13,213 nt of DNA. It comes from Promethearchaeota archaeon. Lineage in GTDB: Archaea > Asgardarchaeota > Lokiarchaeia > Sigyniarchaeales > Sigyniarchaeaceae. Location of the stretch: assembly GCA_016932935.1 (NCBI GenBank), contig JAFGBX010000051.1:1-13213 (forward strand), read 5' to 3'. Below the pieces are notes generated by a model. That model was not told the DNA's origin and did not search any database. It was given only the letters and a program-made list of their open reading frames with translations. Positions within the stretch are counted from its first letter, which is position 1, and each line of letters begins with the position of its first letter. Made by a program: the position numbers and the translations under genes. This document shows positions 2,053 to 13,213 of the stretch, piece after piece.

Positions 2053-3741
2053 ATGGCAATGAATCTTGAAGGTAAGAAGGTCTACAGGCGGACCAAGTCG
2101 GTCTGCCCAGAATGCTTGAAGCAGATCGACGCGAACCTCGTTCTCGACGATCTAGATGGGAATCCGATGGTTCTCATGAGGAAGAAATGCAGCGAGCACG
2201 GCTACTTCGAGGACATCATCAGCCGGAACCCGCCAGAATACGAGAGGAACCAGAAATACTACCACGACTACGTGACCATCGAGAACAAGGACAACGTGCA
2301 CGACACGGGGAAGGGTTGCCCGCACAACTGCGGTATGTGCGCCGAGCATAAATCATCACCATGCATCGTCTTGATCGACATCACGAACCGGTGCAACCTG
2401 GCGTGCCCGATCTGCTTCGCCAACGCGTCGGCGAAGGGCTACCTCGTTGAGCCGACCATGGAGGAACTGCGCATGATCTTGCAGCACTTCCGGGACATCA
2501 AGCCGATCCCGCCCGTCTTGTTGCAGATATCCGGCGGCGAGCCCACGGTTCGGGACGATCTCGTGGACTTCATCCGAATGGGCAAGGAGATGGGCTTCGT
2601 CCAGATCATGCTCACGACGAACGGCCTCAAGCTCGCGGCCCGCAACGGCCCCCAATACATCAAGGAGCTGCACGAGGCCGGTATGGGCGCTATTTACCTG
2701 AGCTTCGACTCTGCCGACGATCCCGAGGTGTACAAGAAGGTTCGCGGCGTCAATTTGCTCGCCCAGAAGAAGCGCGTGATCGAGAACTGCCGCAAGGCGG
2801 GTTACGTCGGCGTGACGCTCGTGCCGACGATCGCACGGGGCATGAACGACCACCAGGTAGGGCCGATCATGCAGTACGCGATGGACAACCACGACGTCGT
2901 CACCGGCGTCGTGTTCCAGCCCGTGGCTCTCTGCGGCCGCGTCGACAACGAGCAGATCCGCGAGCTCCGGTACACGACCAGCGACCTCACGCGGGAGCTG
3001 GCGCGCGTCACGAAGCGCCAGGACACATATATCTTCCCCATCCCCGCCATCTCGAACATGACCAAGCTCATGGGCTGGTACGACTTCGCGCCCCAGTTCT
3101 CGATGGCGTCGCACCCCGATTGCGGCTTCGCGACGATTATGATTCCCGACAAAGAGGGCCGCTGGCACGGCATCGAGGAATGGTTCGAAGCGGACGGTTT
3201 CATCAAGTGGACCGACCACGTCTGGGGGATGGTTGAGAAGGGCGAGTGGCCCAACATGACCGACAAGTTCATCGCACCGCTGGCGAAGCTGTTCGGGGAG
3301 CAAGTCGGGAACGTGATCAACCAGGCCTCGGACTTCGCGTACCGAAAGGCCATCAAGGCCTATTACATGGCCGGCGCCATGCGTTACATCAAGGGCTTCG
3401 ACGGGCCCGTCGAGGAGTTCATCCCCATGGTCTTGAACCCCAACATCACGACATCATCACAGTTCTTCGAGGCGGGCAAGTCCATGCTCGTGAGCTCGAT
3501 GCACTTCCAGGACGTCTACAACTTCGACATCGAGCGCGTCCAGCGCTGCCTCGTGCACTACGGCACGATCGATCCCGACCACCCGGGCAAGGTGCTTCAG
3601 GTGCCCTTCTGCGCGATGAACTCGATCCACCGGGAGGCCATCGAGACCAAGATCGCCAAGGCCAAGTACAAGGTCAACGCGACCGAGATCAACGCGAAGG
3701 CGCGAGAGTTCCTCGAGAAGGAAGTCGTCGGCACCCAGTAA
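2053..3741 (+). CDS. Radical SAM enzyme, tetraether lipid synthase (Tes / GDGT-MAS)-like, paralog 1 (562 aa).
   Basis: The canonical radical-SAM motif CNLACPIC (CX3CX2C) is followed by SGGEPT (a glycine-rich SAM-binding motif). A second upstream CX3CX2C (CPHNCGMC) and an N-terminal CPEC...CSEH rubredoxin/Zn-ribbon-like Cys/His cluster are present, plus a ~300 aa C-terminal domain. Size and multi-cluster layout match what I recall of the Tes/GDGT-MAS family, but the family assignment is made by eye only. High-GC codon usage. ~75% identical to the 5333..7027 protein. Confidence 0.8.
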   Translation: MAMNLEGKKVYRRTKSVCPECLKQIDANLVLDDLDGNPMVLMRKKCSEHGYFEDIISRNPPEYERNQKYYHDYVTIENKDNVHDTGKGCPHNCGMCAEHKSSPCIVLIDITNRCNLACPICFANASAKGYLVEPTMEELRMILQHFRDIKPIPPVLLQISGGEPTVRDDLVDFIRMGKEMGFVQIMLTTNGLKLAARNGPQYIKELHEAGMGAIYLSFDSADDPEVYKKVRGVNLLAQKKRVIENCRKAGYVGVTLVPTIARGMNDHQVGPIMQYAMDNHDVVTGVVFQPVALCGRVDNEQIRELRYTTSDLTRELARVTKRQDTYIFPIPAISNMTKLMGWYDFAPQFSMASHPDCGFATIMIPDKEGRWHGIEEWFEADGFIKWTDHVWGMVEKGEWPNMTDKFIAPLAKLFGEQVGNVINQASDFAYRKAIKAYYMAGAMRYIKGFDGPVEEFIPMVLNPNITTSSQFFEAGKSMLVSSMHFQDVYNFDIERVQRCLVHYGTIDPDHPGKVLQVPFCAMNSIHREAIETKIAKAKYKVNATEINAKAREFLEKEVVGTQ

Positions 3742-4244
3742 TCCCTTCCATTCATTTTTCCAGCTATAACCTGAAGTCTTTCACTTGTACTAGGCGATTT
3801 CCTATGTTCTAGCAGATCTAGCAGAATCTGCATGATTGATAGATTACGCCCTTCACGGGCGTAATCATCGCCCGTGAAGAAGATGATTACGAGGGGCGGG
3901 CCGACCGATGCCTCGAGCACGGCGAGCAATTTGACAAACCACCAGTTCTTCCCGTCGAAGAAGACGTCACGTATGAAGAGAAGCAAGAAGATGTTGGCCA
4001 CGGCGTTCATCGTGAACGAGGCGTACGATGAGAGGGCCACGTAATCGAACACCTCGCGCCAGTCTGGATTAAGGCCGTTGACCGTGAAGACGACGTAGTC
4101 GATGGCAGCGTCGAGGACGAGGAACCCGACCATATCCCGCAGATGTCGGACGGTTCGTGCCTTTCCCACCTCATACTTCATCGCGAGCAAGATGAAGACG
4201 ACCAGGGCGATGGCCGAAGCGAGGATGGCGCCCGCGTAGGCCAT
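3597..4244 (-). CDS. Small polytopic membrane protein (about 4 TM helices). The 3' extent is uncertain.
   Basis: The ORF starts at ATG 4244, directly after an in-frame TAG and downstream of an AT-rich island. The first ~135 aa (MAYAGAILASAIALVVFILLA...VGPPLVIIFFTGDDYAREG) form 4 clear hydrophobic helices with GC-rich codons. The remaining ~80 codons run through the AT-rich hairpin region and overlap the Tes1 3' end by 145 nt, so they may be a non-coding read-through of the ORF. Confidence 0.45.
   Translation of the reverse strand: MAYAGAILASAIALVVFILLAMKYEVGKARTVRHLRDMVGFLVLDAAIDYVVFTVNGLNPDWREVFDYVALSSYASFTMNAVANIFLLLFIRDVFFDGKNWWFVKLLAVLEASVGPPLVIIFFTGDDYAREGRNLSIMQILLDLLEHRKSPSTSERLQVIAGKMNGRDYWVPTTSFSRNSRAFALISVALTLYLALAILVSMASRWIEFIAQKGT
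3843..3867. terminator. Perfect 10-bp-stem hairpin (GATTACGCCC-ttcac-GGGCGTAATC) between convergent genes, with a partial repeat of one arm downstream (cgcccgtgaag at 3869-3879) that allows alternative pairing.
   Basis: The palindrome can be read directly in the sequence. It is flanked by tagcagatctagcagaatctgca (direct/inverted repeats at 3811-3833). It lies 100 nt past the Tes1 stop. Confidence 0.4.
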
Positions 4245-4469
4245 CTACTGGTAATCGTAGGTGAAGAACTGGTGCATAGGCTCATGATCCTCTTTCTCTG
4301 AGCCTCCTTAAAGTCATTCCTTATCCTCGTTAGGTGCTTTAAGAGGATCATATTATTTCACATGCTTTGGATTGTGCTATCCCCCAGCGATGACTATTTA
4401 TCCCCGCGGAGCATATCAAGCTCATCCGGTGCCGCCCAGGGAAAGGCGCGCGCCGGGGTGGGAAAAGCC

Positions 4470-4670
4470 ATGGGAAGCGACAAGCAAGCGGTAGCCGCGC
4501 CCCCCGGGCTCGGCCTGGAGGACGGCGTGGTCATGTTCACGCGCAAGCCTGCAAAGATGGGCGACGATTACATCTTCTGGATCCCGCGCGTTTACGTGCG
4601 GAATGGTCTCGTTGACACGTCGGTCGAGTACGAGATCTACTTGCGCAAGGTACCGGGGCGGAAGGACTGA
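4470..4670 (+). CDS. Small protein (66 aa), possibly an AbrB/MazE/SpoVT-like swapped-hairpin DNA-binding domain.
   Basis: ATG 4470 is preceded by GGGGTGGG with 7-nt spacing (SD-like), with an AT-rich TATA-like ACTATTTATCC at 4391-4400. The product MGSDKQAVAAPPGLGLEDGVVMFTRKPAKMGDDYIFWIPRVYVRNGLVDTSVEYEIYLRKVPGRKD fits the ..IP+.h.+.hGL..GD.VEh.h pattern of AbrB-type domains only loosely. The longer 4362 start would code through the AT-rich promoter island. Confidence 0.4.
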   Translation: MGSDKQAVAAPPGLGLEDGVVMFTRKPAKMGDDYIFWIPRVYVRNGLVDTSVEYEIYLRKVPGRKD

Positions 4671-4773
4671 TGCGAGGTGCTGGAGGTTAGCCGGTGGCGG
4701 AGGAAGGGAGGATGAGCGGGCCCGGCCGCCCGGCGCGCATATTTCGGGAAATCTTGGGAGAGAGGGAAGTTTT

Positions 4774-4816
4774 TGCGCCACGGCGCAGCGCGAAAAGAAG
4801 CGGCTTCGCGCGCCGG
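4774..4816. other. Pair of GC-rich hairpins (tgcgcc-ac-ggcgca; gcgcgaa-N10-ttcgcgc) in the ORF-free spacer.
   Basis: gcgcgaa (4788-4794) pairs with ttcgcgc (4805-4811). An adjacent smaller stem sits at 4774-4787. The pair lies ~105-145 nt past the stop of the 4470..4670 ORF. It could be a terminator or part of a structured RNA. Confidence 0.3.
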
Positions 4817-5332
4817 GTTTCGCGGCCCAGGCCCGCTCGCGGTTAATTCACTTCGGCATCGGCCGCACCCTCTTCATTTTCCTCTTACAAGCCATGCAGT
4901 ATCCGCCCTCGGCATCCATCCCTGTCATGGTGGCTCCCGTGTTGCACCAGGGGCGCGTCACCACAACTTTGTGCTTCTCCGTCCGCATGGTTGCGATCGC
5001 GACAATCTGCCTATGGTACGCTCTATGGTCGACGCCGTGGTATTTATCATTGCTCTGTCCACGTGCCCCCGGCGCGTGTCGTCGAACGGGAGTTCACGGA
5101 TGAATCCTGGTGTCTGGTGAGCTCGGAAGAATTACACTGGATGGGTCGTTAAGCGAACAAAAGGCTGTTGAAGCGCGTCCATTTCGGTCTTGCTGATAGA
5201 ATGATGATGATGCCGAACAATACGATGCGGTTTATTGCCTGGGGCTAAAACCAACCGAACGGAAGCGGGATGAGCGAAAGAATTCGACACTGGAAGAGAA
5301 ATGAGGTGAGAAATACATCCAAGGGCGGTGCA

Positions 5333-7027
5333 TCAATTCCCGACTTCCTTCTCGAGGAACTCCTTGGCCTTGGCAGTGATCTCGTTCGCGTCGAGCTTGA
5401 CGTTCTGAACAGCGATCCTCTTCTCGACGTTCTCGCGGTGGATGCTGTTGAAGGCGCAGAATGGCACCTGCAGCACGTCGCCGGGGCGGTCGGGATCCAT
5501 CATACCATAATGGACGAGGCAGCGCTGGACGCGCTCGATGTCGAAGTTATAGACGTCCTGGAAGTGCATACTCGAGATCAAGAGGTTGTTGCCGTGTTCA
5601 AAGAAGCTCGCTGCCGTTTCGAGCCCTGGGCTGAGCATGATGGGGATGAAGTCGGAAACCGGCCCGCTGATGCCCTTCAAGTAACGCATGGCACCGCCCA
5701 TGAAGTAGGCCTTGATCGCCTTGCGGTACGCGAAGTCCGAGGCCTGGTTGATCACGTTCCCGACCTTTTCCCCGAATAACTTCGCCAGCGGCCCGATCAA
5801 CTTCTCGGAGAAAGTGGGCCACTGATTCTTGCATACGAAATCGTCCCAAACCTTGTCTCCCCACTTCAATAAGCCGTCCACATCGAACCAGTCCTCCACG
5901 CGCATCCATTTACCCGTCTTGGTATCGATTGACATGACCGTGGCAAACCCGCAGTCGGGGTGCGAGGCCATAGTGAACTGGGACGAGTAATCGTACCAGG
6001 CGATCAGCTTCGTGAGGTTGCTCGTGGCGGGGATCGGGTAGATGTAATTGTTCGTGATGCCCACCGCCTCGCCGATGGCTTTGGAGAGGTCGCTGGTCGT
6101 GTACCGGAGCTCGCGGATCTGCTCGTTGTCGATGCGGCCGCAGAGCGACACGGGCTGGAACACGACGCCCGAGACCACGTCACGGTTCGCCTTCGCGAAC
6201 TCCATGATCGGCCCGACCTGGTGGTCGCTCACGCCCTTGGCGATCGTGGGGACGAGCATGACGCCCTTGAAACCGGCTTTGCGGCAGTTCTCGATCACGC
6301 GCTTCTTCTGGGGGAGCAAGTTGACGCCCCTCGCCTTCCTATACACCTCGGGATCGTCGGCAGAGTCGAAGCTCAGGTAAATAGCGTTGAGGCCGGCAGC
6401 CATCAGATCCTTTATGTATTGCGGGCCGTTGCGGGCCGCGAGCTTGAGGCCGTTCGTCGTGAGCATGATCTCGACGAAGCCCAGCTCCTTGCCCATGCGG
6501 ACGATCTCGACGAAATCGTCGCGCACGGTGGGCTCGCCGCCGGAGAGCTGGAGTAACACGGGAGGGATCGGCTTGATGCTCCGGAAGTGGGTCATGATCG
6601 TGCGCAGCTCGTCCAGCGTCGGTTCCACGACGTATCCCTTGGCGGAAGCGTTGGCGAAGCAGATCGGGCACGCCAGGTTGCACCGGTTCGTGACGTCGAT
6701 CAAGGCGATGCAGGGCGACGACTTGTGCGCGTCGCACATACCGCACTCGTGGGGGCAGTTTTTCCCTGAGCGCTCCCCGTGCTTCTTGTTCTCGATCGTG
6801 CAATAATCATGGTAATATTGCTGGTTGCGCTCGTATTCTTGCGGGTTCCGGCTGATGATGTCCTCGAAGTACCCGTGCTCGCTGCACTTCTTCCTCATGA
6901 GCACGGCGTCCTTCCCCTCGAGCTCGTCGAGCACGAGGTTCGCGTCGATCTGCTTCAAGCACTCGGGGCAAACGGACTTGGTACGCCGGTACAGTTTCTT
7001 GCCTTCCAGGTTGGGTTCCATGGTCAT
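5333..7027 (-). CDS. Radical SAM enzyme, tetraether lipid synthase (Tes / GDGT-MAS)-like, paralog 2. 564 aa from ATG 7027, or 562 aa from ATG 7021.
   Basis: Same architecture as paralog 1: CPEC...CSEH, CPHECGMC, CNLACPIC and SGGEPT motifs. It is alignable to paralog 1 over the full length without gaps of note, at roughly 75% identity. ATG 7021 (MEPNLEGKK) has a GGAAGG/AAGGA SD-like motif 6-7 nt upstream, so the true start may be 7021. Confidence 0.8.
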   Translation of the reverse strand: MTMEPNLEGKKLYRRTKSVCPECLKQIDANLVLDELEGKDAVLMRKKCSEHGYFEDIISRNPQEYERNQQYYHDYCTIENKKHGERSGKNCPHECGMCDAHKSSPCIALIDVTNRCNLACPICFANASAKGYVVEPTLDELRTIMTHFRSIKPIPPVLLQLSGGEPTVRDDFVEIVRMGKELGFVEIMLTTNGLKLAARNGPQYIKDLMAAGLNAIYLSFDSADDPEVYRKARGVNLLPQKKRVIENCRKAGFKGVMLVPTIAKGVSDHQVGPIMEFAKANRDVVSGVVFQPVSLCGRIDNEQIRELRYTTSDLSKAIGEAVGITNNYIYPIPATSNLTKLIAWYDYSSQFTMASHPDCGFATVMSIDTKTGKWMRVEDWFDVDGLLKWGDKVWDDFVCKNQWPTFSEKLIGPLAKLFGEKVGNVINQASDFAYRKAIKAYFMGGAMRYLKGISGPVSDFIPIMLSPGLETAASFFEHGNNLLISSMHFQDVYNFDIERVQRCLVHYGMMDPDRPGDVLQVPFCAFNSIHRENVEKRIAVQNVKLDANEITAKAKEFLEKEVGN

Positions 7028-7978: not shown

Positions 7979-8539
7979 TCAATTGATGAGCACTGCCGGT
8001 GCACTCGTGGCGTGGTCGAAGGCGGCTTGCACCGGCATCAGTAGGCAGATCGCCGCCATGATGCCAATGACCAGCAAGACCTCCCTGTCCCTGGCTTCAT
8101 CGATCACGCTGGCCTTTATTTCACGAGAATTCTTTTCGATCTCAGCGATAGAAATCCCGCCTCTTCGGATGATCAAGCGCCTGGGGAATCCCTCTACCAT
8201 TATCTGCATGATGTCGGATCCGATCGCGCTCTCGTACTCGTAGGCATAATCGAAGCCGTCCGCCTTCCGGTTGACGATCCCGAATATCGCAAGGCCTCCC
8301 TCTCCATCGAGAGCGGCCCGCCTCGGCACGAGGATGCGGCAATGCTGGTCGCGGTCGCTCGTGGCCTCGAGGACGAGCGCGACCTCGTGCCGCGAGTTCA
8401 TCACGAATGACGACATCCCCCTCTGGTCTAGCTCCACCCGGATACTGCCCGCCAGCATCCCGTCGCTGTTTTCCAGCAAATACGCTTCGGCACGTTTGTC
8501 GTACCTGCACTTGAAGAACCAGCCCTTTTTTATGGCCAT
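7979..8539 (-). CDS. PH-domain-like protein with a C-terminal transmembrane anchor (tail-anchored). Function unknown.
   Basis: ATG 8539 has a strong SD (AAGGAGG, 8-nt spacer). The N-terminus MAIKKGWFFKCRYDKRAEAYLLENSDGMLAGSIRVELDQ...FVMNSRHEVALV resembles the PH/bPH fold signature (KKGWhhK ... hxhxx). The single C-terminal hydrophobic helix is LLVIGIMAAICLLMPV. The upstream 41 codons of the 8662 ORF lie in an AT-rich island and are excluded. Confidence 0.55.
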   Translation of the reverse strand: MAIKKGWFFKCRYDKRAEAYLLENSDGMLAGSIRVELDQRGMSSFVMNSRHEVALVLEATSDRDQHCRILVPRRAALDGEGGLAIFGIVNRKADGFDYAYEYESAIGSDIMQIMVEGFPRRLIIRRGGISIAEIEKNSREIKASVIDEARDREVLLVIGIMAAICLLMPVQAAFDHATSAPAVLIN

Positions 8540-8808
8540 CGGATCCGCCTCCTTCCAACTTGTTCCTCCATGAGAATCCTCACAGAACCTTATGCTATGA
8601 ACATACGACCGCGACAACAATGTTCCTACTGAATCTATATACTCCCCACTTCGAATCATCAAGATTGCAGTAAGATTTCATGCCGCCGTGCAATAACCTT
8701 CTGCGCATGATATCCAAGGATTCTGAGGCGGTTCTTGGCTGTTGAGGATGCCATCTCTTTTTTTGATGCGCGGATGCCCTCGGGCCATCATACTCCCGCC
8801 CGCCTGCC

Positions 8809-9759
8809 TCAACCGGCGCGGTCGTCCTTCGCGCCGAGGGCCGCCTTGTCGGCGCCCTCCAGCTTCTTGACGGAGCTCTTGTAGAGATCGGGAAGCTTCA
8901 AGGGCTCCGTGAAGCCACCGCGCTCGAACAGCTTCCAGGCCTCGAGTTTCGCGACGGCGTCCAACTCGGCGTCGCTCCTGATCCTGCCCGGCCTCTCCTC
9001 AATGGCCTCCTCACCGGTCGCATACAAGTGCGGGTTTTCCTGGACGTCCTTCACCCAGCGGCGCAACGAGGCCCCGATGGCCGCCCAGTTGAGGAAATTT
9101 GAGAAGAGGTTCTTGATCGCTGCCTGGTCCTTGAACAGGCCGTCGAACGGCGGGTTGAACGCGGCCAGATCCGTATTGCCGTCGAACCGACCGGCCCGCT
9201 TCCGTTCGTCCTTGGGGACGAGCTCGTCGCCCGGAAGGATGCAGTTGCTCCCCGCCGTGAACAGTGGCGACTCGTACCCCGTCGGGCCGGCGTAGGTTCT
9301 TTCGTACTCGTCGATCTTGGATCCGTTCGATCCACCGCCGCCCCGCCTATGTGGTTTCCAGGATGAAGGCGTGGATCGCCTGGCGCGCTGCTTGTTCCTG
9401 AACCCGGTGGGGCTCGGGTAGTCGTCCTCGCCGCTAGCCCCGACGGGTATGCCCATGAAAGACTTGCGCTCCCCGCCGAGGTAGACGCCGCAATGCGGGC
9501 ACCGCATCCCAACGCGGACGCGGCTCGGCAGAACCCGGCCACAGCCGCCGCACGTCCTCGTCGACCACGCGAGGCCGGGTATGCCCCGGAAGCTGCCGTC
9601 GTTGCACGCAATCATGCCGATGATGATGGCCGCGATGATGCCGTAGTAGATGAGGTCGTCGAAGAAGAACAAGGGGTTCGCGAAGGAAAGAACCAGGAGC
9701 GCCGTGGCGAGGATGGAGCAGATGATCACGAGCGTCCGCTTTGTTGGATCCATTGGCAT
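8809..9759 (-). CDS. Membrane-anchored zinc-ribbon protein with a disordered Gly/Arg-rich linker and a ~150 aa C-terminal domain of unknown function.
   Basis: Two N-terminal TM helices (LVIICSILATALLVLSF; LIYYGIIAAIIIGMIA) are followed by a C-x2-C-x16-C-x2-C zinc ribbon (CGGCGRVLPSRVRVGMRCPHCG), a low-complexity RRGGGGSNG linker and a C-terminal domain. Start is ATG 9759 (MPMDPTKR) or 9753. An AT-rich TATA-like island lies upstream at 9780-9860. Confidence 0.55.
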   Translation of the reverse strand: MPMDPTKRTLVIICSILATALLVLSFANPLFFFDDLIYYGIIAAIIIGMIACNDGSFRGIPGLAWSTRTCGGCGRVLPSRVRVGMRCPHCGVYLGGERKSFMGIPVGASGEDDYPSPTGFRNKQRARRSTPSSWKPHRRGGGGSNGSKIDEYERTYAGPTGYESPLFTAGSNCILPGDELVPKDERKRAGRFDGNTDLAAFNPPFDGLFKDQAAIKNLFSNFLNWAAIGASLRRWVKDVQENPHLYATGEEAIEERPGRIRSDAELDAVAKLEAWKLFERGGFTEPLKLPDLYKSSVKKLEGADKAALGAKDDRAG

Positions 9760-9892
9760 GGTGATCTCACGAACATCTGTTGGAAGGTGAATGACCACGA
9801 CCTTCGATTCAGTGATCGAGATATAGATGCCACGGGAGAATATTTAAAATGGTTTCATCCAGAAACGGCGGCATGGCGCCACCGAGCCGTGC

Positions 9893-10543
9893 TCACACCC
9901 TGCCCGGCAAGAAATAGCGTGTCCCGTCCTTGTAAGACACGTCCTTGCGGAGCAGCCCGGTTCGGAGCAGGTGACTGAGTACCCTCGCTAGGCGGACATC
10001 TGCCCAGTGCAGGGTTATCTTCAGCTCGGCCTCGCTCATGAACTCCTTGCCCTTGAATAGCCCCAGCACGGTTGCCCCATCCATGTACGCCTCGGATTGT
10101 TTGATCGCGAGGTAATGCTCCCCGTCCTGGTGGATCTCGTCGAAGGGCTTGTCCTTGATCTTGCAAGCCTTCCGGATGTGGTCTATCGAAACGAGGGCTT
10201 TGAGCGAGCTGCTCCCGAAGTCCTTGAGTATCGCAGGTAAGGCCAGGATGCCCCCCGTCGAGCCGATGGCTGACTCGAGGATAGCCTTGATTCTCAAAGC
10301 GAGGAGATCGATGCGGGGCTCCACGGTTCCTGGCGCGAGGATCTCGGAATACGAGTCCTTGGGTATGACCTTCACGTAGTTGTCGGTCGATGAAATGACG
10401 ATCGCCCTGTCTCCCTTGTTCAGGGAGAACTCGGAATCGGCCCTGACGAGATCCAACGTGCCAGCCTCGTGGCGAACCATGCCGTTCCCCCGAGCCTGGT
10501 TCCACAAGTCCACGGTCACGACAGCACCGACGGGCACCTTCAT
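9893..10543 (-). CDS. NfeD-like OB-fold domain protein (no TM segment) fused to C-terminal winged-helix (wHTH, TrmB/MarR-like) domain(s).
   Basis: ATG 10543 has a GAGGTG SD-like motif 11 nt upstream and lies 53 nt after the flotillin stop. The N-terminal ~65 aa (GAVVTVDL...VRHEAGTLDLVRADSEFSLNKGDRAIVISSTDNYVKVIP) matches the NfeD C-terminal beta-barrel pattern (V.V.GE.W.A.S-..I..GE.V.V....L.V). The C-terminal MSEAELKITLHWADVRLARVLSHLLRTGLLRKDVSYKDGTRYFLPG is a classic wHTH with wing. A second WH-like segment (ILALPAILKDFGSSSLKALVSID...GEHYLAIK) precedes it. Confidence 0.6.
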   Translation of the reverse strand: MKVPVGAVVTVDLWNQARGNGMVRHEAGTLDLVRADSEFSLNKGDRAIVISSTDNYVKVIPKDSYSEILAPGTVEPRIDLLALRIKAILESAIGSTGGILALPAILKDFGSSSLKALVSIDHIRKACKIKDKPFDEIHQDGEHYLAIKQSEAYMDGATVLGLFKGKEFMSEAELKITLHWADVRLARVLSHLLRTGLLRKDVSYKDGTRYFLPGRV

Positions 10544-10596
10544 CGATCGCACACCTCGAAAAAGAGAAAGAGGATGACGCAAAAGAAGCTATCGCA

Positions 10597-11880
10597 TCAC
10601 CTGCCCGACGCCGCGGCCTGGGCGGTCTTCGTGGCAAGCCCGACCTTGGCGATAAGCTCGGAAAGGCCGCCCTGGAGCAGCCCGGACTGAAGCAGCGCAT
10701 CGATCTTCGGCAAGAAGTTACCGAGGAAGTTGCCGTCCGAGTTCCCATTACCACCCGAGGGCAGATAGATGATCTTGTTGTTCGGCCCGACTGCCTTTGC
10801 TATCTGCTCCGCGGAATCGACTTGTGCCTTGGCGAGGAGTTCGAGGATCTTCATCTGCGCCGTCGTCTCGTTGTATTGCTTCATCGCCTCGGCCTTCTGC
10901 CGGATGGCATCAGCCTCAGCGATGCCCCTGAGGCGGATGCCCTCGGCCTCCGCCTCGAGCTTGAGCTTGACAGCATTACTGTCCGCCTGGGCCTTGATCG
11001 ACACTGCCTCCGAATCCGCCTTGGCGAGCATTATCTTCTTGTTGCGCTCGATCTCGGCCATCTTCTCCGCGTTCTGCTGTTCGACCTTCAAGCGCTTCTC
11101 CTCGAGCACGAGCTTCTGCTCCGACGCGAGCTTCTCACGCTCGTAGTGGGCGACCTCCTCCTCCTTCTTCATCTGCTCGCTCTTAACCTTGGCGTCCTTC
11201 TCCTTCTCGACCTCGATCTTGACCGCCTCGGAGTCGTGGGTGGCCTCGGAGATACGCGCGTTGCGTCGGAGCTCGGCGATCTTGACCTTCTCGAGCGAAG
11301 CTATGACGTCGGATCCCTCGATGTCCCGGATATTCTTGATGTCGAAAATCACGGGCGAGAGGCCGAGCTTGGACAGCGCGTCTTGCACCATCGCATAGAT
11401 GGCTTTTTCGATCTCCTCCCGGTTCTTCATGATCTCGAGGATGTTGCGCTCCATCGCCACGGAGCGTGCCGCCGACATAACCGTGTCCTCGACGACCTTC
11501 GAGATCGTGCTGTGGTCGATTGTCGTGAGGGTCGCTGCTGACTTTGGCGGGTCGGTCACCTGCACCTTGACCGATATCTCGACACCGAAGGGCAGCTTGT
11601 CCACGTCGTGCAGCTTGATGAGCTGGGGCTCGATGTCAAGCACGTGTTTCGGGATGATGGTTCGCCCGTGGAAGACCCGCAGGAACACGTACCTGCCCGA
11701 GCCATCATACTGAGTGATCCTTTTACCATGGCTGACGACGTGCACCTCGTTAAAAGGCACGACGACCAGCGACTTAAAATAAATGCCGACGACGATCATG
11801 GCGGCGATCCCGCCGATGACACATGCAAGGATCCCGCCGACGAGGTTGAAGTCCACCTGGAGATGCTGTGCTTGGATCAT
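10597..11880 (-). CDS. floT: Flotillin (SPFH/band-7 family, FloT-like) membrane scaffold protein.
   Basis: An N-terminal TM helix (ILACVIGGIAAMIVVGIYF) is followed by an SPFH domain and a long Glu/Ala/Lys-rich coiled-coil with EA repeats (AEAEGIRLRGIAEADAIRQKAEAMK) typical of flotillins. A GAGGA SD-like motif lies 6 nt upstream of ATG 11880. Confidence 0.85.
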   Translation of the reverse strand: MIQAQHLQVDFNLVGGILACVIGGIAAMIVVGIYFKSLVVVPFNEVHVVSHGKRITQYDGSGRYVFLRVFHGRTIIPKHVLDIEPQLIKLHDVDKLPFGVEISVKVQVTDPPKSAATLTTIDHSTISKVVEDTVMSAARSVAMERNILEIMKNREEIEKAIYAMVQDALSKLGLSPVIFDIKNIRDIEGSDVIASLEKVKIAELRRNARISEATHDSEAVKIEVEKEKDAKVKSEQMKKEEEVAHYEREKLASEQKLVLEEKRLKVEQQNAEKMAEIERNKKIMLAKADSEAVSIKAQADSNAVKLKLEAEAEGIRLRGIAEADAIRQKAEAMKQYNETTAQMKILELLAKAQVDSAEQIAKAVGPNNKIIYLPSGGNGNSDGNFLGNFLPKIDALLQSGLLQGGLSELIAKVGLATKTAQAAASGR

Positions 11881-11967
11881 ATGGGTTCCTCTATGCTTGG
11901 CACACCTTCTTCAACGACTGGTGTTCATGCAGAGCTAGCCGATTCAACAGCCTTGAATTGATGACAT

Positions 11968-11985
11968 GTGAAACATATGTTTCAC
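11968..11985. promoter_or_regulatory. Perfect 18-bp palindrome GTGAAACATATGTTTCAC in the divergent promoter region between the flotillin cluster and the WH/Pro-rich gene. Candidate operator for a dimeric regulator.
   Basis: Read directly. It is 88 nt upstream of the flotillin ATG at 11880 and 127 nt upstream of ATG 12112, inside the AT-rich island. Confidence 0.4.
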
Positions 11986-12111
11986 GATGCGCCACTGGGT
12001 CGGGATGCTTGGAGGGAATGCTTATTTGTCGTCCCCTTGATCTAATCACAATAGGACTCTCGGAGAATCGAGTGATTCATCCACCGGTTCACACCATCAT
12101 GGCGGACAACG

Positions 12112-13213
12112 ATGAGCGACGAGAAGAAGCCTTCGACGATGTTTGAACTAATGCAGATGTCGCAAAAGAAGCAAGAATCCGAGAAAGGAAAGAAAAAAAA
12201 GGACAAGGACAAGGACAAGGAGAAGGACGTCCAAGAGAGCCAGGAGTTGGACGAGAAGCTCTTCGGCAAGGCCTCGGTCGCGGCACCCGGTGGTGCAGCT
12301 GCCCCGGCGGGGCCGAGCTCGAGAGACTTGTTCTCGCTGCTCGAGGAGACGGACAAGGAGGCAAAAGCGGCCCTCAAAGCACAGCTCCTCGACGCGATCG
12401 AGGCCATGGCACAGGCCTATGCTGAGATACCGATCAACCGGATCGCGAAGCGCGTCAGGGAGGAGGCCGAGGAGGCCGTCCTCGCAGTGCTCGAGGAGAT
12501 GATCATCGGCGGCCTCATCAAGGCGCGGCTCGCCCCCGACCGGATCCTCCCCGCGGATGGCTCCAGCAAGATCCAGGTCGACCGTGGCGCTGCGGGGGTA
12601 CAACCCAAGTCACAGCCCGCTCCCTCGCCCCCGGTCGCGACGAGCAAGCCCGAGCCGCCCTCGGCAGCATCGGGCGCGCCCGCCGAGCCGGGGCCTGCCA
12701 AAGAAGCCAAGCCACGCCCGTCCATGGAGGACGTGCCACCAGCCCCTTCCATCCCTCCGGTTCCCGCGCCGGCGGCACCAAGGCCGGCGCCACCACCCGT
12801 TCCATCGATCCCAAGGATCGAAGCACCCCCGGCGATATCCATCGGCGTTGGGGCGCCGGCGCCAAGCCCACCGCCAGAGCCGGCGGTCGAACCGCCAGCG
12901 CCGGCAGCTCCCGCAGTCGAGGAAATACCCGATTTTCCCAATCCCGATTCGATCGAGGCCCCGCCCGGTGCGATCCCGGTTCCCGCTCCCGCGCCGGCCC
13001 CGGCACCCGTGGCGTCCCAACCAGCCCCGCCCGCGTCGAGGCCCCTTGGGGGGCTCAAGCCCATGGGGAAGATGCCGATCCCCAGCCCGGCCCGGGCCGG
13101 GATGGTGAAGCCCGCTCCGCCGGTTTCCCCGGCGCCCGTCGCGCCGGTGGTGCCGTCCGCGCCGGTGGTGCCGTCCGCGCCGGTGGTGCCGTCCGCGCCG
13201 GTGGTGCCGTCCG
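12112..13213 (+). CDS. Hypothetical protein, 3'-truncated by the window edge. It has an acidic/Lys-rich N-terminus, a PCI-like winged-helix domain and a long Pro/Ala-rich low-complexity tail with APVVPS tandem repeats.
   Basis: Manual translation from ATG 12112 has no stop to the window end (367 codons): MSDEKKPSTMFELMQMSQKKQESEKGKKKKDKDKDKEK...IPINRIAKRVREEAEEAVLAVLEEMIIGGLIKARLAPDRILPADG...(P/A-rich)...APVVPSAPVVPSAPVVPSAPVVPS. The six-frame track omits it because there is no stop inside the window. The opposite-strand ORFs here are G/A/R-rich shadows. Confidence 0.6.
   Translation, partial: MSDEKKPSTMFELMQMSQKKQESEKGKKKKDKDKDKEKDVQESQELDEKLFGKASVAAPGGAAAPAGPSSRDLFSLLEETDKEAKAALKAQLLDAIEAMAQAYAEIPINRIAKRVREEAEEAVLAVLEEMIIGGLIKARLAPDRILPADGSSKIQVDRGAAGVQPKSQPAPSPPVATSKPEPPSAASGAPAEPGPAKEAKPRPSMEDVPPAPSIPPVPAPAAPRPAPPPVPSIPRIEAPPAISIGVGAPAPSPPPEPAVEPPAPAAPAVEEIPDFPNPDSIEAPPGAIPVPAPAPAPAPVASQPAPPASRPLGGLKPMGKMPIPSPARAGMVKPAPPVSPAPVAPVVPSAPVVPSAPVVPSAPVVPS
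12201..12228 (+). repeat. Hexanucleotide tandem repeat (GGACAA)x3 plus degenerate copies, encoding DKDKDKEKD. It is immediately preceded by an A8 homopolymer (12193-12200).
   Basis: Read directly: ggacaaggacaaggacaaggagaaggac. It is in-frame inside the 12112 CDS. Confidence 0.8.
13141..13213 (+). repeat. Perfect 18-bp tandem repeat gcgccggtggtgccgtcc, at least 4 copies, continuing off the window edge. It encodes (APVVPS)n.
   Basis: Four identical 18-mers run from 13141 to 13212 in the frame of the 12112 CDS. Being cut by the window edge, the copy number is unknown. Confidence 0.9.

Follow-up and report, generated by a model that had tools for sequence, protein, structure and literature searches.

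A proline-rich, repeat-bearing gene at the end of a Promethearchaeota contig as the N-terminal part of a putative two-headed winged-helix protein

The truncated gene, its product and its full-length relatives

The gene described here starts at position 12112 of contig JAFGBX010000051.1 of a Promethearchaeota archaeon (assembly GCA_016932935.1) and is open up to the last base of that contig. The stretch of DNA that was analysed, hereafter called the window, is the entire contig of 13,213 bp, which also carries the genes of MBN2150297 (the second of two tetraether lipid synthases, Tes2), MBN2150301 (an EAP30-like protein) and MBN2150302 (a flotillin); the open reading frame (ORF) is therefore cut by the true end of a contig and not by an arbitrary edge, and its truncation is an assembly break. 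The features of the gene and its surroundings are collected in Table 1. The original prediction for this DNA had described a truncated ORF with a KD-rich start, a winged helix (WH), a Pro/Ala-rich tail and 18-bp repeats at the edge, as well as an A8 run and a (GGACAA)3 repeat at the 5' end, and all of these elements were found in place. The product starts with MSDEKKPSTMFELMQM, and the choice of the start codon is backed by the N-terminal sequence MSD(E)KKPSTM, which is conserved in the relatives P0001, P0002 and L005.

These relatives are few. A word-indexed search with the N-terminal 168 amino acids (aa) returned one protein (P0001), an exhaustive HMMER search of 1.84 billion representatives returned three (P0001, P0002 and P0003), and a scan of genome contigs gave the Bin_245 contig as its sole match, while scans of the protein against Pfam, NCBIfam and PADLOC gave nothing at or above threshold. 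The family is thus rare or poorly captured in databases. From a metagenome scan came L005 and L006, contigs that encode an N-terminus 73% identical to that of the window protein, and it is in L005, a relative and not the window's own genome, that the full-length gene was found, as a single 612-aa ORF (positions 314-2152) with 73% identity to the window protein over the N-terminal 160 aa. The architecture of this ortholog consists of the N-terminal peptide, a KD tract 10 aa longer than that of the window protein, the WH, a Pro/Ala/Val linker of 362 aa with which the window linker aligns, and a conserved C-terminal domain of ~85 aa. Its ORF goes on for more than 190 aa past the point where the window ends, and not, as the original prediction had named as its own refutation, to an early stop without further repeats. 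Judged against this relative, the window ORF is the 5' ~60% of the protein: the sequence ends in a variable linker zone past the third conserved island, and at least ~190 residues are missing, including a second WH, which is absent from the window because the contig stops inside the repeat. A search for the 3' half of the window gene gave no contig with the C-terminal domain from the same sample, and none that matched the last 313 nt of the window beyond motif 3. It should be noted that the HisS encoded just downstream of the L005 gene is identical to a protein named Candidatus Sigynarchaeum springense at NCBI, a genus within the Asgard kingdom Promethearchaeati.

Table 1. Coordinates of the gene, of the parts of its product and of nearby features (positions are those of the window unless a contig is named)
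Feature	Position	Strand	Remarks
Partial coding sequence	12112..13213	+	367 codons, stop-free; translated from the ATG at 12112 to the final base
Conserved N-terminal peptide MSDEKKPSTMFELMQMSQKK	12112..12171	+	aa 1-20; near-invariant in the window protein, L005, P0001 and P0002
Lys/Asp/Glu-rich low-complexity tract	12172..12321	+	aa 21-70; length varies among orthologs
A8 run	12193-12200		inside the charged tract
(GGACAA)3 repeat	12201-12218		inside the charged tract
Acidic PCI-type winged helix (predicted)	12322..12585	+	aa 71-158 (~88 aa); one long helix, then helix-helix and beta-hairpin wing
Pro/Ala/Val-rich disordered linker	12586..13213	+	aa 159-367; 34% P, 20% A, 10% V; longest Pro run 3
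Linker motif 1 PPPVPSIPRIEAPPAISIG	12790..12846	+	conserved in L005, L014, L020 and P0002
Linker motif 2 EEIPDFPNPDSIEAPPGAIP	12919..12978	+	IPDFPNP[DE] in L005, L014 and L020
Linker motif 3 RPLGGLKPMGKMPIPSPARAGMVKP	13039..13113	+	G.LKP[LM].K[MI]P in L005, L014, L007 and L020; partly in P0001 and P0002
Four perfect 18-bp units GCGCCGGTGGTGCCGTCC, (APVVPS)4	13141..13212	+	units start at 13141, 13159, 13177 and 13195
Perfect 18-bp palindrome GTGAAACATATGTTTCAC	11968..11985	.	127 bp upstream of the start codon; matched in 0 of 200 shuffles
SPFH/flotillin gene	10597-11880	minus	427 aa; Band_7, E 4e-19
EAP30-like gene	9893-10543	minus	216 aa, beta-rich N-terminal ~75 aa; near-threshold EAP30/Vps36 match (E 2e-5, 25 bits against a cut-off of 26.8)
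Shadow ORFs	12417-13064; L008 2-241; L014 3-602; L020 3-704	minus	overlap the GC-rich Pro-codon region

The first two segments of the product are a short peptide and a charged tract. For the conserved peptide, the hydrophobic moment is 0.35-0.44 and the mean hydrophobicity below 0, and a membrane-targeting N-terminal helix was rejected on account of this low moment. The charged tract has a net charge of 0 and a predicted local distance difference test (pLDDT) score below 50 in the AlphaFold2 model (residues 22-67). Besides the two runs noted above, Tandem Repeats Finder (TRF) reports AAGGAC x5 at 12199-12228 in this region; the A8 run reads AAG-AAA-AAA-AAG, that is, Lys codons, as expected for a Lys-rich tract.

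The segment that follows is predicted to be a WH, with helices at residues 73-102, 108-115 and 120-132 and strands at 136-140 and 144-147 (AlphaFold2, pLDDT 80-90). Its sequence pattern, ..IP...IAK......E.....L..LI..G.I.ARL, is of the PCI type, and the Pfam PCI domain (PF01399) was the top match in all four family members tested: P0001 (20.6 bits, E 5e-4), P0003 (19.6 bits, E 1e-3), the window WH (13.8 bits, E 0.07) and P0002 (13.5 bits, E 0.085). What aligns in each case is the WH portion, positions ~20-75 of the 84 in the profile. The likeness to PCI-type WH domains that had been proposed for this region was thus borne out in the ranking of the match, but not in its strength, as every score (13.5-20.6 bits) lies under the gathering threshold of 22 bits, short of what the sequence profile demands of a PCI domain. 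A comparison of the family profile with Protein Data Bank (PDB) sequences reached Rpn3, Rpn5 and PSMD3 only at E ~0.7-1.7. In a Foldseek search with the WH model, generic MarR/ArsR-type matches lead, and CSN2, Csn12, Rpn9, Thp1, SNF8/Vps22 and UFL1 are within the top 30, so that PCI-type structural neighbours are present for the predicted structure. A TPR/HEAT-like helical-repeat subdomain was not found ahead of the WH, where a single long helix (aa 73-102) follows the disordered tract, and a Pfam scan detected no PCI or MPN genes in the window. Taken together, the N-terminal WH is of PCI type by its predicted fold and by a weak sequence signal, and membership of the PCI or DDRGK families is not demonstrable from these data.

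The C-terminal domain of the full-length relative (FENPKLALLGFDEDW...GLNFVINTNL) is found in seven further database clusters at 64-91% identity. Its model is that of a second WH (helices 15-29, 34-52, 56-63 and 67-79; strands 83-85 and 90-92), and its fold matches are generic winged helix-turn-helix (wHTH) proteins. Both modules are acidic, with isoelectric points (pI) of 4.8 and 5.7 for the first and the second WH, respectively, which favours protein binding over DNA binding; the third WH helix, at the recognition-helix position, is acidic and hydrophobic (EEAVLAVLEEMII).

The two modules are joined by the linker, in which Pro, Ala and Val make up 71, 41 and 22 of the 214 residues 154-367 of the window protein. 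An alignment of all long fragments revealed four conserved islands (PPPVPSIPxIEAPPxISxG; IPDFPNPD..APP; RPxGxLKPxGKxPxPxPA; and KLAAVPRPPTVPPSMA) with variable Pro/Ala/Val sequence between them, and nucleotide conservation between the window and L005 amounts to 70% over 12785-13010. The product is therefore built of an N-terminal peptide, a KD tract, an acidic PCI-type WH, a linker of ~360 aa with four motifs and a second WH. The idea that the tail serves as a flexible tether gains from this architecture, as in the full-length relatives the tail joins the first WH to a second, C-terminal one.

The same PCI-type WH is also present in the relative P0003, a 557-aa protein encoded by L004 (7402-9075; E 7e-11 to the family profile). 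In this protein the WH is preceded by what looks by eye like an AbrB/VAT-N-like N-terminus and a Zn ribbon (for which Pfam gives only E 0.14-0.15), and a short Pro-rich segment leads from it to a TIR domain (PF13676, E 3e-17) at the C-terminus. The gene adjoins those of another TIR protein and of a 1598-aa Ras/LRR/TPR protein. Its occurrence in a TIR protein marks the WH as a mobile module, which has a further use in what may be signalling or defence.

Tandem repeats in the distal linker

TRF places the array at the end of the window at 13136-13213, with a period of 18 bp, 4.4 copies, 98% matches and a score of 149. The perfectly 18-nt periodic suffix is 74 nt long (13140-13213) and reaches the contig end, so that the array comprises at least four perfect copies, and in both frame and composition it continues what comes before it (APVAPVVPS...).

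In-frame tandem repeats, different in each lineage, are present at the distal linker in six of the seven distinct relatives that could be read there. They consist of 45 bp x 2.6 in L005 and L006 (a 115-bp array), 30 bp x 2.4 and 54 bp x 2.1 in L007, 51 bp x 2.4 in L010, 18 bp x 2.4 in L011 and L014, and, in L018 and L019, 24 bp x at least 5.9 (99-100% matches) together with 33 bp x 2.7 or 3.7. The sequence common to L008 and L009 yielded no array, and L020 has a 6-bp x 2.5 micro-repeat only.

L018 (from ENA) and L019 (from JGI) both encode the same C-terminal domain and have no mismatches across 921 bp 3' of the repeats. Both start inside a perfect 24-bp repeat, (APKAPSVP)n, of at least 5.9 copies in L018 (1-244) and at least 3.6 copies in L019 (1-222). 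The exact 33-bp units that encode PAAPKVPAIQK number two in L018 and three in L019, and the anchors that flank them lie 80 and 113 bp apart, respectively, which constitutes a length polymorphism of one unit (11 aa) between populations of one ortholog. In L005 and L006, which come from two samples, 3 of the 1588 aligned positions differ, and all three lie within the 115-bp array. The distal linker is a hot spot of in-frame tandem duplication, and its copy number varies between populations in one ortholog; the locus was predicted to be variable in copy number, and this holds in the form of different in-frame repeats in the relatives and of a one-unit difference in an ortholog.

The possibility of phase variation, which had also been raised, was not supported by the comparison. 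All the repeat units (6, 18, 24, 30, 33, 45, 51 and 54 bp) are divisible by 3, which argues for variation in spacer length and not in phase, and the A8 run consists of Lys codons. In addition, the independent Logan assembly L001, from what is probably the source sample (SRR13394437), matches the window at 100% identity from 9685 to 12636, with A8 and (GGACAA)3 unchanged.

The repeats also appear to determine how the family is seen in assemblies. All 14 contigs that were fetched with the C-terminal domain but lack the N-terminal half (L007-L020) start in the Pro-rich region, several of them in a repeat, and P0001 likewise stops at a contig end within its tail. L018, whose name begins with k141_, opens with 142 nt of the 24-bp repeat, that is, k+1. 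From this we infer that perfect arrays longer than the k-mer of the assembler stop contigs, and the 74-nt periodic end of the window would be the same signature. Moreover, the GC-rich Pro-codon linker is overlain by spurious antisense or out-of-frame shadow ORFs, rich in Gly/Ala or Arg (Table 1). In several public contigs the gene callers have picked these, and the real gene is cut to a C-terminal fragment of 70-98 aa, an artefact that helps to explain the apparent rarity of the family. Short-read assembly would thus fail systematically at the Pro-rich repeats, which also give rise to shadow ORFs on the antisense strand; the family is left fragmented and nearly invisible in protein databases.

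Genomic neighbourhood

The gene is separated from the divergent flotillin gene by an intergenic region of 231 bp that contains the palindrome, a possible promoter-proximal element of the 12112 gene. In L006, the flank CTTGAAT..ACATG.AAACATATGT is kept 5' of the ortholog, and conservation extends to the core ACATATGT and the left flank but not to the arms. The flotillin and EAP30-like genes are deleted in this contig (scar at 5000-5110) and the target ORF is intact; what remains is the last ~22 codons of the EAP30-like gene (SLLRKDVSDKDGTRYSLP versus GLLRKDVSYKDGTRYFLP), fused to the upstream region of the target, and a transposase of the insertion sequence (IS) type (L006 3560-4945) adjoins the scar. 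The gene had been proposed to be paired divergently with the flotillin cluster through a shared palindromic operator. The divergent layout and the perfect palindrome are real; the shared operator is not supported, since the palindrome arms are not conserved in L006, and a functional link is likewise not supported, given the loss of the pair there. We therefore rejected a conserved functional linkage to the flotillin as a requirement. A role of the protein at the cell envelope, another earlier suggestion, is disfavoured by the lack of a hydrophobic segment, as judged by eye, in the 367 aa and by the acidic character of both WH modules.

An out-of-frame ATG lies 13 nt 5' of the start codon and opens an overlapping upstream ORF (uORF) of 15 codons (MADNDERREEAFDDV*, window 12099-12146). 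This ATG and its surroundings (ATGGCSGAYAACGATGAGCGACGA) are conserved in L006 (5238-5250), although this may simply reflect a conserved 5' leader.

Other neighbours are kept to different degrees. The order of adk, a 218-aa gene and the Zn-ribbon gene is maintained in L006. Downstream, the neighbour is hisS in L005, L008 and L018 (by Pfam match or NCBI name), and seven more contigs have a gene of fitting size and spacing at this position. The upstream neighbour of the homologue in L002 is Tes. The Zn-ribbon neighbour was rejected as a conserved partner, because the Zn-ribbon protein of L002 is not homologous to that of window 8809-9798 beyond a transmembrane-like stretch.

Further along the window there are two paralogous genes for radical-SAM tetraether lipid synthases, at 2053-3741 (plus strand, 562 aa) and 5333-7027 (minus strand, 564 aa), which are convergent and less than 1.6 kb apart; the latter, the sole copy that was scanned against NCBIfam, scores 449.5 bits against the rSAM_GDGT_ether cut-off of 450. 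The presence of these paralogues confirms that the host is an archaeon. The interval 4245-5332 (~1.1 kb) between a membrane-protein gene (3597-4244, minus strand) and Tes2 contains no convincing ORF; the only frames in it are an Arg-rich one of 166 aa, one of 169 aa whose greater part lies opposite Tes2 on the other strand, and four of 102-119 aa. Neither the Rfam nor the tRNA scan gave a match anywhere in the window, this interval included. Two genes on the minus strand encode proteins without a Pfam family: a 227-aa protein (7979-8662), conserved in L006, where a paralog-like 196-aa ORF adjoins it, and a membrane protein of 316-329 aa with a CxxC...CxxC zinc ribbon (8809-9798), which is 71% identical in L006. 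Their counterparts span L006 969-3269.

Interpretation and comparison with known systems

Based on these observations, we favour, with moderate confidence, the view of a protein that resides in the cytoplasm and serves as a flexible tether or scaffold with two heads, its linker drifting in length by slipped-strand events or unequal recombination. The gene would be the N-terminal part of a 'dumbbell' protein, so far encountered only in Asgard-type archaeal metagenomes, and the contig would have ended because the assembler broke in the perfect repeat. The array (APVVPS)n would be a recent expansion by either of these routes, altering the length of the spacer and not the frame. The two acidic WH modules and the linker motifs are predicted to bind protein partners, and the length of the spacer between them would be only loosely constrained.

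Several considerations weigh against this view. The change in copy number was seen in an ortholog (L018/L019) and not in the (APVVPS) array of the window itself. The function as a tether is deduced from an architecture read from sequence and models, for which reason the family by itself opens no long-standing question. Both structure models derive from shallow alignments (4 and 7 sequences) and have a mean pLDDT of ~69-70. The size of the family is uncertain, as gene callers split or mis-strand the gene and its partial products are poorly represented in protein libraries, and the restriction to Asgard archaea is provisional, given that P0001 carries the NCBI name Bathyarchaeota.

The protein might instead be an adaptor in membrane trafficking or of the DDRGK1 kind, in which the charged tract and the PCI-type WH act like those of DDRGK1/UFBP1 or of WH proteins of the ESCRT-II type (endosomal sorting complex required for transport), docking on the flotillin/EAP30-like pair or on another WH protein, with the linker motifs recruiting more factors. 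In favour of this are the charged tract ahead of the WH, as in DDRGK1, the divergent position of the gene beside an SPFH/flotillin gene and a near-threshold EAP30 gene, the reported Asgard origin of UFL1 and DDRGK1 (PMC10183829), and the contextual links between SPFH and ESCRT and the HTH/PCI domains described for Asgard ESCRT-associated proteins (PMC10936438). As the likeness to DDRGK1 extends to the charged tract, the PCI-like WH and the Asgard roots, membership of the DDRGK family was tested. PF09756 gave no match at E<=10 in six queries (three family members, the window WH, the full-length L005 homologue and its C-terminal domain). Using hhalign, after the WH sequence of human DDRGK1 had been verified against PDB entries 8b9x, 8c0d and 8ohd, the family WH alignment (A4) reached E 0.24 against the human sequence; with an alignment of 24 DDRGK sequences (A6) the value was E 0.16 and the register was wrong. 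The charged region and the WH are present, but no hydrophobic segment that could correspond to the N-terminal anchor of DDRGK1 was seen by eye in aa 1-70. In addition, the target is intact in L006, from which the flotillin/EAP30-like pair has been deleted, its homologue in L002 has Tes as upstream neighbour, and the protein is absent from the supplements of the Asgard ESCRT survey (PMC10936438). We therefore regard an adaptor role of this kind as unlikely. Still more doubtful is its bolder version, namely that the protein is an Asgard forerunner of eukaryote-style trafficking or UFMylation adaptors, in which the DDRGK1/PCI-type WH and the second WH would dock on the SPFH/EAP30-like (ESCRT-II-like) pair or on Asgard UFL1-like proteins, and the linker motifs (IPDFPNPD, G.LKPxGKxP and the repeated VPxVP) would be presented to MIT, SH3-like or appendage-like domains. 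If true, this would be an early archaeal example of multivalent scaffolding by a disordered region. Irrespective of its relation to the target, the pairing of a flotillin with an ESCRT-II-like WH protein in an Asgard genome may deserve a study of its own.

Other explanations turn on the DNA. A WH transcription regulator that binds the 18-bp palindrome and controls itself and the divergent flotillin operon would fit the perfect palindrome in the intergenic region, and the Foldseek matches of both WH models are mostly to MarR, ArsR, CggR and DtxR regulators (E ~5e-3). However, the acidic nature of both modules, the hydrophobic and acidic helix at the recognition position, a 360-aa Pro-rich linker, which does not belong to the architecture of a regulator, and palindrome arms that have not been kept in L006 make this highly improbable. 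Even less credence can be given to a contingency locus, as in phase-variable surface genes, in which slippage in A8, (GGACAA)n or the 18-bp array would switch expression or make adaptive variants. Slippage-prone runs do lie within the 5' coding region and a change in copy number has been observed in the ortholog, but units that are all multiples of three change the length and keep the frame, the A8 run is explained by the Lys-rich tract, L001 is identical across both runs, and without a signal peptide or membrane segment, as judged by eye, the protein is not an exposed antigen. The chance is equally slight that the four identical units are an assembly artefact, that is, a graph cycle or a chimeric contig end. 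The array does sit exactly at the contig end, and its periodic length of 74 nt is, as we infer, near common k-mer sizes; yet independent assemblies of orthologs have comparable in-frame repeats at the same place, some of them bounded within contigs (L005, L006, L011 and L014), the array keeps the reading frame and composition of the upstream sequence, and exactly the same picture results when an assembler halts at a genuine perfect repeat that exceeds k, as in L018.

If the tether reading is correct, the gene belongs to a family of the Asgard lineage that has remained unannotated and is recognised by none of the Pfam, NCBIfam and PADLOC models, and that joins two eukaryote-flavoured features: a protein-binding WH of the PCI/DDRGK1 type and a long, motif-bearing disordered linker that evolves through tandem repeats. 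It would also provide a clean archaeal case of an in-frame variable-number tandem repeat (VNTR) in a coding spacer, in which populations are one unit apart.

Compared with known systems, the target resembles the PCI proteins (Rpn3/5/9, CSN7/CSN2, PCID2/Thp1; PF01399) in having a WH with a PCI-type pattern that is acidic and protein-binding in appearance. Unlike them, it has no helical-repeat (TPR/HEAT-like) subdomain before the WH, and its WH is followed by a Pro-rich linker of 360 aa and a second WH, an arrangement found in no PCI protein; a multi-subunit PCI complex is not in evidence for the target. With DDRGK1/UFBP1 (PF09756), the adaptor of the UFM1 ligase UFL1, it shares a long and highly charged Lys/acidic tract ahead of the WH, and some DDRGK members themselves give PF01399 matches. 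However, DDRGK1 stops soon after the WH, where the target continues, and the target has neither an N-terminal transmembrane anchor nor a UFL1-like neighbour. The EAP30/Vps22/Vps36 proteins of ESCRT-II are defined by an EAP30 profile (PF04157) or a tandem pair of WH domains, and the target shows neither. As to the MarR/ArsR-type wHTH proteins, the fold of both WH models matches theirs, yet both modules are acidic, and the palindrome arms are not conserved in L006. Phase-variable genes have a frame-shifting tract with length heterogeneity, whereas the units here are divisible by 3 and A8 is the same in L001.

Pro-rich spacers with variable tandem repeats are known from TonB-type rods and from VNTR-containing linkers. 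The target differs from these in that it is probably located in the cytoplasm, lacking both a membrane anchor and an export signal, and in that its linker holds conserved motifs and joins two WH modules. By analogy, it is like them in having a long, low-complexity and probably extended segment whose length shifts by in-frame repeats, and, as is characteristic of a VNTR coding locus, the copy number in its ortholog L018/L019 differs between closely related populations. What emerges from these comparisons is an uncharacterised and very sparsely sampled Asgard protein family that is new, but made from known kinds of parts.

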